DNA of 64,000 bases, taken from Candidatus Bathyarchaeota archaeon BA2 (lineage in GTDB: Archaea; Thermoproteota; Bathyarchaeia; Bathyarchaeales; Bathyarchaeaceae). A program made the translations under genes and the position numbers. The notes under the pieces were generated by a model. The model made no database searches. It was not told the origin of the DNA and worked only from the letters and a program-made list of their open reading frames with translations. The stretch lies in NCBI GenBank assembly GCA_001399795.1, contig LIHK01000023.1:6916-70915 (forward strand), given 5' to 3'. Shown piece by piece: positions 2,961 to 61,212 of the stretch (its first letter is position 1; every line of letters begins with the position of its first letter).

Positions 2961-3479
2961 TTATTTAGGCAAGCTTGATTCCAGACTTGCGAGAAAATCA
3001 TTGTTCCAATTAAGTAAAATGTCCCAGTTGTTCTTTAAAACTTGCAGTTTTCCTACGGACCTTGACTTCCCCCATTTTTCAATGAACCGTGTGGGAATTA
3101 GATAGAGGTCAAATGTATTCTTGTCTACTCCGATTACCAAGTCGTTGTGCTCTGTTGTATATTTATACTCTTTTACTTTGGGAATGTATATTCTATTAAT
3201 CCCGCCTCTTGTTCCGCCAGTAAACTTGATGCTCCCGCCTTCCGAAATAGTTTTAGTTTGGACTCTGAGAGACACTTTTCGTCCATTGGGCTTCTCATAA
3301 GCAAGGAGCCATAAATCGTATGCAACTCCCTTGACTTGCATAACCCCTACATCAAATCCTAATCTAATTAATATCCCAGTAACAATGAATTGGTGAGCAT
3401 CACCTAAGAGAGCAGCAAATGCGCTAGGATGTTTCCCAGTAATATTAAGGTCGGTTATTTTCCTTTCCCGAGACAGCAT
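2961..3479 (-). CDS. putative type II restriction endonuclease (PD-(D/E)XK-like)
   Basis: 172 aa, co-oriented with and 26 nt downstream of the methyltransferase. AYDLWLL...LRVQTKT fits a D...(Q/E)xK nuclease core. The call rests mainly on context. Confidence 0.55.
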   Translation of the reverse strand: MLSRERKITDLNITGKHPSAFAALLGDAHQFIVTGILIRLGFDVGVMQVKGVAYDLWLLAYEKPNGRKVSLRVQTKTISEGGSIKFTGGTRGGINRIYIPKVKEYKYTTEHNDLVIGVDKNTFDLYLIPTRFIEKWGKSRSVGKLQVLKNNWDILLNWNNDFLASLESSLPK

Positions 3480-3505: not shown

Positions 3506-5032
3506 TTAAGGTTTCCTCAGAATTACTAAGTTTTCCACCGGTGTTCTTCTGTCTTTAAGCTTCGTTGCTGGATTGATACGGTAGGAAAACATTCGGCGGG
3601 CTACTATAGTGTCTATTAGTGTACCCTCATGAACCCACCCCAACTCAACAAAATGTTCTGCAAAAATTCGGTCGATTGGAACAGGACGTCCCCTCATGCT
3701 TGCCCGACCTACAAAGAGGAATAGATAAGGGCTCACTTTTTCCTGTAAGCGGGTAAGTGCCCCAAGTACTCCCCAAAAATATCTGTCAAAGAGTTTTCGC
3801 ATATGGTTTTCTTCTATTTCGCCCCTCCAAGAAGAAAATGTTTCGGAATGCACGGGTTGTGGTTCCACATCCCTATAAGGAATTTCCAGCTTGCTCAGTT
3901 TTCTGACTTCATCCTCTGAGTGGCCCAACCAAAAAAGGTCCATTTTCGCTTGTCGGATATACTCGTGTGACTGTAAGTAAGGAGGAGAAGTGATGAGGAT
4001 ATCCTTTTCTTCTGTAAGGTTCATGCTTAAGGTATCGACCCCGCCCTTAACGATTGCCTCAGTTTGTTTAGGCGAAAGCATCCAATGGTCCTCTATCCTT
4101 TTTATGACCTTCTCCGTTTCTTGCTCTACCATTTTAAAGAATTTGGTCTTCCAATCGCAAGTCAACAGCAAATTAACTCGCTGTTCTGATTTTGGCGATT
4201 TAGAAAGCTTTTGCCTTTGCATGTCGTCATATGAGAAGTAACGTGTAGTTTTAACTAGAGGTATGGTTAGAAGGAGTTTAAGGTATTCATCATCCATAGA
4301 ATGGTAGAAGCCCCATACTCTATACAGAAGAGGTAGGAATTCTTGTGGAAACCAATAATAAAGTCTTGACCACTTTGGGACGAATTCTTCATTAGAAGTA
4401 GCCAATTGATGAAGAAGTTTCTTTACGTCTACTTTTTTTGGCTCCAATGTGGCAACACTATGCAACGTCTCTAGCAGTGGATTTAGGTCCCACAGTTCAT
4501 AATCATAGCCATAAATCCTTGATACAACACCAACCGTTCCACAACCAGCGAATGGGTCAAAGACCTTCATACAGGACTGGGCATAATTTTCTAAAACGTA
4601 AGCTATTACATGAGGAATAAACTTAGCAGGATATCTATAGAGACCAAACGTTGCATAAGTTGTGGAAGGAAGGTTTGCCAAATTGCGGAATAGAACTTTT
4701 CTCTCTTCTCCTAGCATTTTCTCTCTCGCGCCAAACAGACCTGTCTCACTTCTAGATTCGATTCTTAAAACAGCACTTTCCAATTTACTCGTAATTGGTT
4801 CAATTTGAAAACCTTGCTCACTCTTAACTAAGTGTACTTGATAACCAATAGGAAATTTTCCTTTCAAAAAAGGTGACCAGAGTCTCCCATATTTGTCAAG
4901 CCTTGCTGGATTGCCGTTCAGCGTAGTAACACATGGCAGAGGCGTATTGCCAATTAGTTCAGGTCTACTTTTTGTCGGGATACAAATAAATCCCTGAAGA
5001 ACCTCCATCTTTTTAAGAAACTTGCTTACCAT
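3506..5032 (-). CDS. DNA amino-methyltransferase (N4-cytosine or N6-adenine), alpha-type motif order
   Basis: SAM motif I (DPFAGCGTVG) lies about 190 aa upstream of catalytic motif IV (ILITSPPY). S-P-P-Y favours N4-cytosine. Confidence 0.85.
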   Translation of the reverse strand: MVSKFLKKMEVLQGFICIPTKSRPELIGNTPLPCVTTLNGNPARLDKYGRLWSPFLKGKFPIGYQVHLVKSEQGFQIEPITSKLESAVLRIESRSETGLFGAREKMLGEERKVLFRNLANLPSTTYATFGLYRYPAKFIPHVIAYVLENYAQSCMKVFDPFAGCGTVGVVSRIYGYDYELWDLNPLLETLHSVATLEPKKVDVKKLLHQLATSNEEFVPKWSRLYYWFPQEFLPLLYRVWGFYHSMDDEYLKLLLTIPLVKTTRYFSYDDMQRQKLSKSPKSEQRVNLLLTCDWKTKFFKMVEQETEKVIKRIEDHWMLSPKQTEAIVKGGVDTLSMNLTEEKDILITSPPYLQSHEYIRQAKMDLFWLGHSEDEVRKLSKLEIPYRDVEPQPVHSETFSSWRGEIEENHMRKLFDRYFWGVLGALTRLQEKVSPYLFLFVGRASMRGRPVPIDRIFAEHFVELGWVHEGTLIDTIVARRMFSYRINPATKLKDRRTPVENLVILRKP

Positions 5033-59660: not shown

Positions 59661-59966
59661 ATGGTGCGAAGATCAAAACTGGAAAGGTACATTAGCATTC
59701 TTGAGATTCTGGCGCGTGCGCGCAATTTTGCGTCTCAGGAGCCAATGGACTTAACCCAACTTATGCGTAAGACTGGTCTAAGCAAAAGCGTTCTGAAACA
59801 ACACTTAGACTCTCTGATACAGCAAAACCTTGTTGAAGAACAAAACTTAGGTAAAGACAAAATTTTCTACGCCATTACAGAAAGAGGTCTAAAGGTGCTG
59901 TACGTTGTCGTCCCAATAATTGAAGAAGCGCGCAAAATCCCAGCATCGCTATACCAGCATGAATGA
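59661..59966 (+). CDS. winged-helix transcriptional regulator
   Basis: 101 aa. MDLTQLMRKTGLSKSVLKQHLDSLIQQNLVEE...FYAITERG. Confidence 0.65.
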   Translation: MVRRSKLERYISILEILARARNFASQEPMDLTQLMRKTGLSKSVLKQHLDSLIQQNLVEEQNLGKDKIFYAITERGLKVLYVVVPIIEEARKIPASLYQHE

Positions 59967-59997
59967 CGGAATAGACCACCACTTTTGTCATTTTTGC

Positions 59998-60316
59998 GCG
60001 CGCATAAGTGTTGAATAATTCTTTTTGGCTTGTTTTGGTGATTGGGGCGGTTTTTGGGCTTAGTAGGTGAATGCTGCTATGCTGTTGGCTAGGTCTGGTC
60101 TGCCTATCTTGTGTGTCGTGATGGCCACCGCATATATGCATGAGTAGCATAGGGCCACGTGCATGCGCTGAAAACTTTCCAAACCGGTTTGTCACCTCTT
60201 CTGAGGTTGATTTAACCATCCCTTGGCATTCTCACCCCTATAAGCCTAACTAAGCCTAGAAAAAGCCTAATTGACGGAAATAAGTTAGGAAAGAATTATT
60301 CAACACTTATGCGCGC
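59998..60316. mobile_element. MITE-like non-autonomous element with 27-bp perfect terminal inverted repeats
   Basis: GCGCGCATAAGTGTTGAATAATTCTTT at 59998-60024 is the exact reverse complement of 60290-60316. The 265-bp interior has subterminal GGCTT/AAGCC(TA) repeats and no credible ORF. Confidence 0.6.
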
Positions 60317-60522
60317 AACCGTCAACGATTTATAAAAGGTGATAATTACCGTTTAACCCCGAAAACTTCAAAAATCCTTTAAACTAACCTTTATGGTTGC
60401 GAGCTAAATGTTTCGAAGAAGCGTTGTCCCCCCACAGACTGAAGGGGTTTCCATCGTTCTCACAAGGGTCAGCTACCGACATGAGCGACTTCAAACTCAA
60501 TCCGTCAAATCTTCTCTAAAAG

Positions 60523-61212
60523 TCACGTATATCCGTACTGAGCTAGATAGGACCTGATGTATTCAACTGCTCGTTCTCTTGGTCTGTAGATTCCAAAATG
60601 CCCCTCTGCCAAGACATCAAAGTCCAAGCTGACAAGTTTCTTCATAGATTCAGCCCATTCTGAAATGTTGGAACGAAACTCGGACATGAATGGACCATGA
60701 ACATCCTGCGCGAAAAGGATATTTCCACCCGAGGTGCTGAGAAGTATCGAAATGCTTCCAGGCGTGTGACCTGGCGTGTGAAACCATCTTAAGGTTTTGT
60801 TTCCCACTGGAAATTTTCCCTCAGAGCCCGAAAGTTTAACATCTACTTTGCAGGGAATCAAAATCTGGCTATACCAAACAGCCCCTGTTAGTTTGGGATC
60901 TGCTTTTTCTAAAACCTCACTGTCTAACTCGTGGGCAACCGTTTTGCACCCATATTTTTCGCGAAAAGAAGCGGCTCCTCCAACATGGTCTATGTGAGAA
61001 TGCGTGATAAACAGGGTTGAGATATCCTCTGGATTTAAATCCGCCGTCTTTATGTTTTTACAAATTTTATTAATATCTACGCTGACGCCAGCGTCAATCA
61101 ACGCCAACTCGCTTTTACAATCTACAAGGTAAACCATGCAATCTCCTGGATTAGATATTTCAGAACTGCCGACCAAGTAAACTCCGGGAAGTATTTCAGA
61201 GGGTTTTTGCAT
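60523..61212 (-). CDS. MBL-fold metallo-hydrolase
   Basis: THSHIDHVGG (HxHxDH) and a downstream HTPGHTPG motif. Confidence 0.85.
   Translation of the reverse strand: MQKPSEILPGVYLVGSSEISNPGDCMVYLVDCKSELALIDAGVSVDINKICKNIKTADLNPEDISTLFITHSHIDHVGGAASFREKYGCKTVAHELDSEVLEKADPKLTGAVWYSQILIPCKVDVKLSGSEGKFPVGNKTLRWFHTPGHTPGSISILLSTSGGNILFAQDVHGPFMSEFRSNISEWAESMKKLVSLDFDVLAEGHFGIYRPRERAVEYIRSYLAQYGYT

Follow-up and report, generated by a model that had tools for sequence, protein, structure and literature searches.

A 319-bp inverted-repeat element of Candidatus Bathyarchaeota BA2 as a probable internal-deletion derivative of a ~1.2-kb DDE insertion sequence widespread in Bathyarchaeia

The 319-bp element flanked by 27-nt inverted repeats in the 64-kb window from Candidatus Bathyarchaeota BA2 (by window we mean the whole stretch of DNA that was analysed) is very probably a non-autonomous derivative, generated by internal deletion, of a ~1.21-kb DDE insertion sequence (IS) that is widespread in Bathyarchaeia. 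As reconstructed from sequence comparisons, a member of this IS family would have inserted into an alternating-GC tract (GCGCGCG) ~30 bp downstream of a gene for a winged-helix (wHTH) regulator, and a deletion between two GCGC microhomologies would then have removed ~886 bp and thus nearly the whole open reading frame (ORF) of the transposase. The element still has both terminal repeats with their subterminal repeats and, of the transposase gene, the 5′ leader, the 6 codons at the start and the 35 codons at the end. Homology of both halves to the IS ends, absence of the element from relatives and loss of the transposase are shown directly, whereas the sequence of events (a deletion at this site, or arrival of a copy shortened beforehand) is one that we only infer. 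The features of the element and of its surroundings are listed in Table 1.

Table 1. Features of the 319-bp element and its surroundings (positions are those of the window; where the evidence cell is empty, see the text)
Feature	Position	Strand	Evidence
wHTH (winged-helix) regulator gene, HTH_45	59661-59966	+	
Left alternating-GC tract GCGCGCGC, part of it putative target or duplication	59996..60003	.	
Whole putative non-autonomous IS derivative	59998..60316	-	blastn against full-length IS in L008 (3823-5031)
Right terminal inverted repeat (IRR)	59998..60024	+	repeat finder; window search; family conservation
Residual 40-codon ORF, LESFQR fused to MHVALCYSCIYAVAITTHKIGRPDLANSIAAFTY, then stop	60060..60182	-	translation; tblastn
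Putative deletion junction at a 4-nt microhomology (GCGC at either breakpoint of full-length copies)	60165..60168	.	
Left-end interior of the IS, 5′ leader to first 6 codons	60165..60289	-	L006 alignment, family consensus, translation
TTG start codon of transposase remnant	60182-60180	-	
Shine-Dalgarno-like GAGGTGA	60198-60192	-	
Left terminal inverted repeat (IRL), GCGCGCATAAGTGTTGAATAATTCTTT on the minus strand	60290..60316	-	repeat finder; family conservation
Right alternating-GC tract GCGCGC, putative second copy of target or duplication, or IS tip	60311..60316	.	
Metallo-beta-lactamase-fold protein gene	60523-61212	-	

An earlier, sequence-only reading of the window had described the terminal inverted repeats as perfect over 27 bp around an interior of 265 bp. 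This was borne out: a repeat finder returned two arms of 27 nt each (59998-60024 and 60290-60316) with 100% complementarity and 265 nt between them, and the 27-mer was absent from the rest of the window when up to 3 mismatches were allowed and had no match in 100 dinucleotide shuffles. The arm reads GCGCGCATAAGTGTTGAATAATTCTTT on the plus strand at 59998-60024 and as the reverse complement of this at 60290-60316; the core of the terminal repeat is GCGCATAAGTGTTGAATAATT. The subterminal repeats were likewise recovered where they had been seen, with AAGCCTA at 60242-60248, 60252-60258 and 60263-60269, and with TTTTTGGCTT and TTTTTGGGCTTAG on the left, the left ones being two copies of TTTTTGG(G)CTT. 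On the minus strand, along which the ancestral transposase gene was read, the 5′ leader thus contains three TAGGCTT repeats spaced 10–11 nt apart.

The element occupies a spacer at which two genes converge with their 3′ ends, one for the wHTH regulator and one for a metallo-beta-lactamase-fold protein, and the distance of about 30 bp from the wHTH gene, as originally given, is correct (end of the gene at 59966). The wHTH protein is identical to one that carries the name Candidatus Bathyarchaeota archaeon BA2. The locus recurs in a metagenome-assembled genome (MAG), GCA_002509245.1, and in assemblies made from the hydrocarbon metagenome SRR2132206. Four contigs with an identical wHTH protein (L001-L004) match the window at 100% across the whole spacer; they come from the same population as the window and therefore carry no comparative information. 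A look-up of contigs with the metallo-beta-lactamase-fold protein as delimited here found none. Further right in the spacer, at a distance of 14 nt from the element, there is a TATA-box-like palindrome (TTTATAAA, 60330-60337), after which no gene and no Rfam match was found; as a promoter it could drive minus-strand transcription into the element, or rightward transcription.

Evidence for the origin of the element came from outside the window. A species-representative genome collection was scanned with 22 nt of the repeat, the window's own genome not being among the matches, and the same repeat was found in another Bathyarchaeota MAG (PEWI01000023.1, locus L006). A match in Chitinophaga (L005) was set aside as probably due to chance. 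In L006 the identical repeat forms the head of a truncated IS copy, of which positions 4421-4269 are 81.7% identical over 153 nt to the reverse complement of element positions 168-319; after the repeat and ~150 nt there follows an ORF with the transposase domain DUF772. Homologues of this ORF led to complete IS copies in L008 and L007. The copy in L008 is 1209 bp long (3823-5031) and carries ORFs with the domains DUF772 and DDE_Tnp_1. By blastn, element positions 3-170 match the right end of this IS (1207-1039) with 85.8% identity and element positions 164-319 match its left end (157-1) with 72.8% identity; the best right-end matches are L112 (87.2%) and L091 (87.1%). Window positions 60165-60316 thus correspond to the left end of the IS, from the terminal repeat through the 5′ leader and the Shine-Dalgarno site to the sixth codon, and positions 59998-60164 correspond to its right end, with the last 35 codons, the stop codon and the other terminal repeat. 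Since the two halves match opposite ends of the IS, the element consists of two IS ends joined, with the transposase gene oriented oppositely to the window. At the protein level, residues 301-335 of the transposase from L112 match window 60167-60063 (minus strand) with 82.9% identity (tblastn, E 8e-14).

The junction between the two ends was placed by alignment with the full-length copies in L112, L058, L089 and L091. IS positions ~153-1038 are missing from the element. In L112 the left breakpoint reads ...TTTTCAGCGC/CTCC... and the right breakpoint ...GGTGCGC/ATGCACG..., and the element reads GTTTTCAGCGCATGCACGTGG across the GCGC. Translation shows that the reading frame is preserved across the deletion. 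Of the transposase gene only 6 codons from the N-terminal end and 35 from the C-terminal end have been kept, and the remnant of 40 residues has lost both the DUF772 and the DDE domain. The statement of the earlier reading that the interior lacks a credible ORF therefore holds in effect, but the interior is not devoid of coding sequence, being a transposase remnant (35 + 6 codons) on the minus strand.

That the element is an insertion is indicated by relatives. Three related Bathyarchaeia contigs (L013, L011 and L137), with 85–91% nucleotide identity in the flanking genes, have no element at the orthologous site. In L013 the wHTH gene is followed by a spacer of 156 nt and the metallo-beta-lactamase-fold gene; in L011 and L137 the ligase and wHTH genes are followed by other DNA. 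The alignment of the relatives with the window reaches an uninterrupted GC tract at the insertion point (TTTTGCGCGCG/TTTT, TTTTCGCGCGCG/AGCG and TTTTGCGCGCGCG/GTAA), and each empty site contains a single such tract, namely TTTTGCGCGCGTTTT in L013 (~3335-3343), TTTTCGCGCGCGAGCG in L011 (~3320-3331) and TTTTGCGCGCGCGGTA in L137 (~2228-2237). The presence of an uninterrupted GCGCGCG tract and the absence of the element in the relatives mean that the element is an insertion into an alternating-GC target. The search for empty sites that had been proposed gave three relatives that lack the element and have the tract intact, the empty site being defined from the left side only because the right flank (60317-60507) aligns with no relative. 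A single-copy unit conserved in relatives, which the earlier reading had named as the finding that would speak against a transposon, is not what was seen: L013, L011 and L137 all lack the element. Together with the assignment of both halves to IS ends, this absence supports the non-autonomous transposon that had been suggested as one of two interpretations.

Where exactly the element ends is obscured by the target itself. The boundaries of nearly every member of the family read GC/GCGCATAAG...CTTATGCGC/GC. Among 37 copies, 7 have something other than GC as the outer two bases of one end, and 2 depart from the inner GCGC. As the outer two bases deviate more often than the inner GCGC, both 27-nt arms probably include at their outer edge a GC that belongs to the target or flank and not to the element. 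The empty sites have one GC tract of 7–9 nt, as compared with 8 + 6 nt in the window, which fits a duplication of 2–6 bp; how GCGCGC divides into IS tip and duplication (2, 4 or 6 bp) is masked by its palindromic nature. This agrees with the earlier failure to identify a target-site duplication and explains it, the palindromic GCGCGC at both ends hiding the duplication. From these comparisons it follows that the insertion targeted the GC tract and that part of GCGCGC is target or duplication.

The surroundings of the GC tract deserve mention in their own right. The metallo-beta-lactamase-fold gene is separated at its 3′ end from the element by ~190 nt (60317-60507) that match no relative. In their place L013 has an unrelated stretch of ~95 nt, and L137 has a whole gene for a 359-aa Fer4 protein between the wHTH and metallo-beta-lactamase-fold genes. 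That synteny breaks exactly at the GC tract in all relatives suggests a rearrangement hot spot or an IS-associated deletion or replacement of adjacent DNA. A T-run followed by the alternating-GC tract (TTTTGCGCGCG), ~30–55 nt downstream of the wHTH stop codon, is kept in all relatives, and the DNA beyond it differs among them. Besides being an IS target, the T-run and GC tract could form a motif that is bound by a protein or associated with a terminator.

The parent family is large. JGI metagenomes scanned with the degenerate repeat core GCGCATAAGTGKTSAWTAATT yielded at least 120 loci, and from all fetched loci 27 complete IS copies of ~1.19–1.21 kb were assembled. Most of these have a single intact ORF of ~335 aa, which is interrupted in L007, L008, L056 and L091. 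The transposase scores above the Pfam gathering scores for both PF01609 (DDE_Tnp_1, 64.4 bits) and PF05598 (DUF772, 56.2 bits). With the NCBIfam models for IS transposases it reaches 109.8 for IS1182 against a cut-off of 270 and 56.1 for IS5_4 against a cut-off of 140, the other models giving lower scores. With the domains present and all NCBIfam scores below the cut-offs, the family can be called IS5/IS1182-like, a designation that stops short of assignment to a curated family. There are at least 438 clusters of transposases in this IS family, nearly all of them without a taxon name or from Bathyarchaeia, and our search of the literature found no description of this IS or of the miniature element in Bathyarchaeota. 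A ~1.2-kb IS family that is abundant in Bathyarchaeia has thus apparently gone uncatalogued. Its terminal repeats begin with GCGCGCATAAGTG; across the 27 full-length copies both ends show at least 90% conservation in their first ~23 nt, and the motif GGCTTAGT is found at both ends, ~55–70 nt from the tip. The conserved tips and the subterminal GGCTT and GGCTTAGT repeats are plausibly the binding sites of the transposase. The family has an apparent preference for alternating-GC targets.

Several members of the family are decaying. For example, in L007 (3854-5063) and L008 (3823-5031) the transposase is split into two ORFs of ~162 aa each, and in L009 (3854-~4500), L010 and L006 (4269-~4700) only the left end and the DUF772 part are left. 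In L009 and L010 a PIN/MazE toxin-antitoxin pair directly follows the IS remnant. A partial copy with 73% identity over 569 nt is located at the end of a contig classified as viral in IMG/VR (L138, 5646-6215; IMGVR_UViG_3300042903_000096), which may be from a Bathyarchaeia virus or provirus or may be a misclassified fragment. Two transposases (P0272 and P0275) that are 73–75% identical to the Bathyarchaeia family are named from MAGs of Fervidicoccaceae and Halobacteriota. This suggests either that the IS has spread horizontally or that the bins contain errors.

The sequence-only reading had proposed a search for further copies and for an autonomous partner. The partner was found in the sense that other Bathyarchaeia contain transposase-encoding IS copies: the 27 complete copies have the same ends as the element, and most of them have an intact ORF of ~335 aa. 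But none of them was placed in the element's own genome: tblastn revealed neither a full-length partner nor any other copy of the transposase in the 64-kb window, and none of the best 120 transposase homologues is named BA2. The nearest full-length copies are only 79–87% identical to the element, so that no direct parent is in hand.

The designation as MITE-like has to be seen in the same light. The size of 319 bp, the terminal repeats, the lack of a functional transposase and the insertion polymorphism all agree with it, but searches of the window and of the 133 fetched loci gave no second copy with the element's deletion junction. The element may therefore be a one-off, having arisen by deletion in situ from a full-length insertion. 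The alternative, which refines rather than replaces the explanation as an internal-deletion derivative, is that it is a true MITE: a member of a multi-copy family of short elements that arrived as a 319-bp unit and was mobilised in trans. In favour of this are the terminal repeats, intact and identical over 27 nt, the retention of the subterminal repeats, and the existence of other short families with the same terminal repeats in several genomic contexts; since no other copy with the same junction turned up, we consider arrival as a ready-made unit possible but rather doubtful.

The other short families comprise one of 343 bp (L026, 3700-4042; L050, 1578-1920; L087, 6002-6343), whose members are 84–89% identical to one another, one of ~360 bp (L094, 356-716; L118, 812-1170) and one of 132 bp (L022, 2870-3002; L082, 8563-8694). 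Each has terminal repeats of the GCGCGCATAAGTG type, is present on more than one metagenome contig and has an interior that is largely unrelated to the IS. In addition, single short elements of 430 bp and 978 bp with the same repeats were found. The occurrence of several miniature families with the same repeats indicates that the IS family spawns and moves miniature derivatives. The transposase of the family could still move the 319-bp element in trans by a cut-and-paste DDE reaction, since two intact and identical terminal repeats and the GGCTT subterminal repeats, the presumed binding sites of the transposase, are retained.

A long inverted repeat can also be thought of as RNA. The plus strand of the element is predicted to fold with -138.7 kcal/mol (z -8.7) and the minus strand with -109.8 kcal/mol (z -7.4). 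These z-scores do not discriminate between explanations because any inverted repeat folds well. The difference of ~29 kcal/mol in favour of the plus strand comes from a stem that extends past the 27 bp through G-U pairs: of the 12 transition differences between the arms of the element (59998-60120 versus 60200-60316), 11 give a G-U pair on the plus strand, which is the strand antisense to the transposase. The same bias is found between the ends of full-length copies, 1.2 kb apart. It amounts to 11:0 in L112, 7:0 in L008 and in L089, and 8:1 in L058, with a family total of 105:45 over the 27 copies, counts that are not independent of each other. Its presence in full-length copies means that the bias goes back to the IS ends and did not arise for the sake of the hairpin, and it is thus no evidence for an RNA gene. 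Its cause could be nucleotide composition, coding constraint at the right end or selection at the RNA level. In the last case, selection on the IS ends could come from end-to-end folding of read-through or antisense transcripts or from a long hairpin RNA made by short derivatives such as the 319-bp element, a reading that we regard as very unlikely. If it were true, the hairpin RNA would lower transposase expression in trans, and miniature copies would regulate the parent IS in Bathyarchaeia.

Less probable still, and hardly credible on the evidence, is that the element is a gene for a structured non-coding RNA on the plus strand, with the 27-bp repeat and its G-U-rich extension forming the closing stem of a rod-like molecule. 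This was the second interpretation offered by the sequence-only reading, and it finds its support in the better fold of the plus strand and in the G-U pairs. However, no Rfam family matched at the gathering score anywhere in the window, and around the element a search at E ≤ 10 gave only chance-level hits (E 2.5–6). L013, L011 and L137 lack the element at the orthologous site, homology to the IS ends explains all of its length and extends to a coding remnant on the opposite strand, and the G-U extension of the stem is common to full-length IS copies, so that the interpretation has to be abandoned. For completeness, ARAGORN found no tRNA. A host regulatory hairpin, e.g., a bidirectional terminator or insulator that stops read-through from both of the convergent genes, as a long hairpin between two 3′ ends could do, is equally improbable: the hairpin is missing in relatives with the same two genes (L013 having only the 156-nt spacer), no terminator-like site was found in a promoter/terminator scan (the consensus being of the bacterial type, which says little about an archaeon), and any effect on termination would be a by-product of the insertion. 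Archaeal termination occurs mainly at oligo-T tracts and not at 27-bp stems.

The element shows no sign of a host function, and its location between convergent 3′ ends is neutral. It is an ordinary relic of mobile DNA, an internally deleted IS copy, and raises no new biological question. For annotation this means that in Candidatus Bathyarchaeota BA2 the wHTH and metallo-beta-lactamase-fold genes are separated by a spacer with a dead IS copy, which should be labelled neither as an RNA gene nor as a regulatory hairpin. The definition of the IS family should be useful in annotating Bathyarchaeia MAGs and in understanding breaks in their assemblies.

How does the element compare with known systems? 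With the miniature families of 343, ~360 and 132 bp it shares the GCGCGCATAAGTG... terminal repeats and a similar size range. Yet their interiors resemble that of the element not at all or at the ends only, the similarity to the 343-bp family covering just ~107–127 nt at one end (69–77% identity), and the other miniature families occur as several copies, whereas the element is single as far as seen. MITEs known from prokaryotes are, for example, SM1-SM4 of Sulfolobus and those derived from IS5- and IS630-type elements. Like the IS-derived ones, the 319-bp element lies between genes, lacks a transposase and has terminal repeats identical to those of an autonomous IS; both of its ends are homologous to the parent, and its deletion junction is at a microhomology. 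Unlike them, it is so far represented by one copy with its junction, keeps an in-frame coding remnant (6 + 35 codons) and has a target-site duplication that is unreadable. The parent IS differs from the IS5/IS1182 group in its repeats of ~25–27 nt that begin with GCGC, in its alternating-GC target, in its Bathyarchaeia hosts and in its scores below the NCBIfam cut-offs. IS5 itself has a similar size and layout (~1.2 kb, one ORF) and the target YTAR. The likenesses to the group lie in the length of ~1.2 kb, in the one ORF of ~335 aa and in the InsH-type combination of DUF772 and DDE_Tnp_1, and, as IS5 does with YTAR, the parent IS appears to prefer a short palindromic target.
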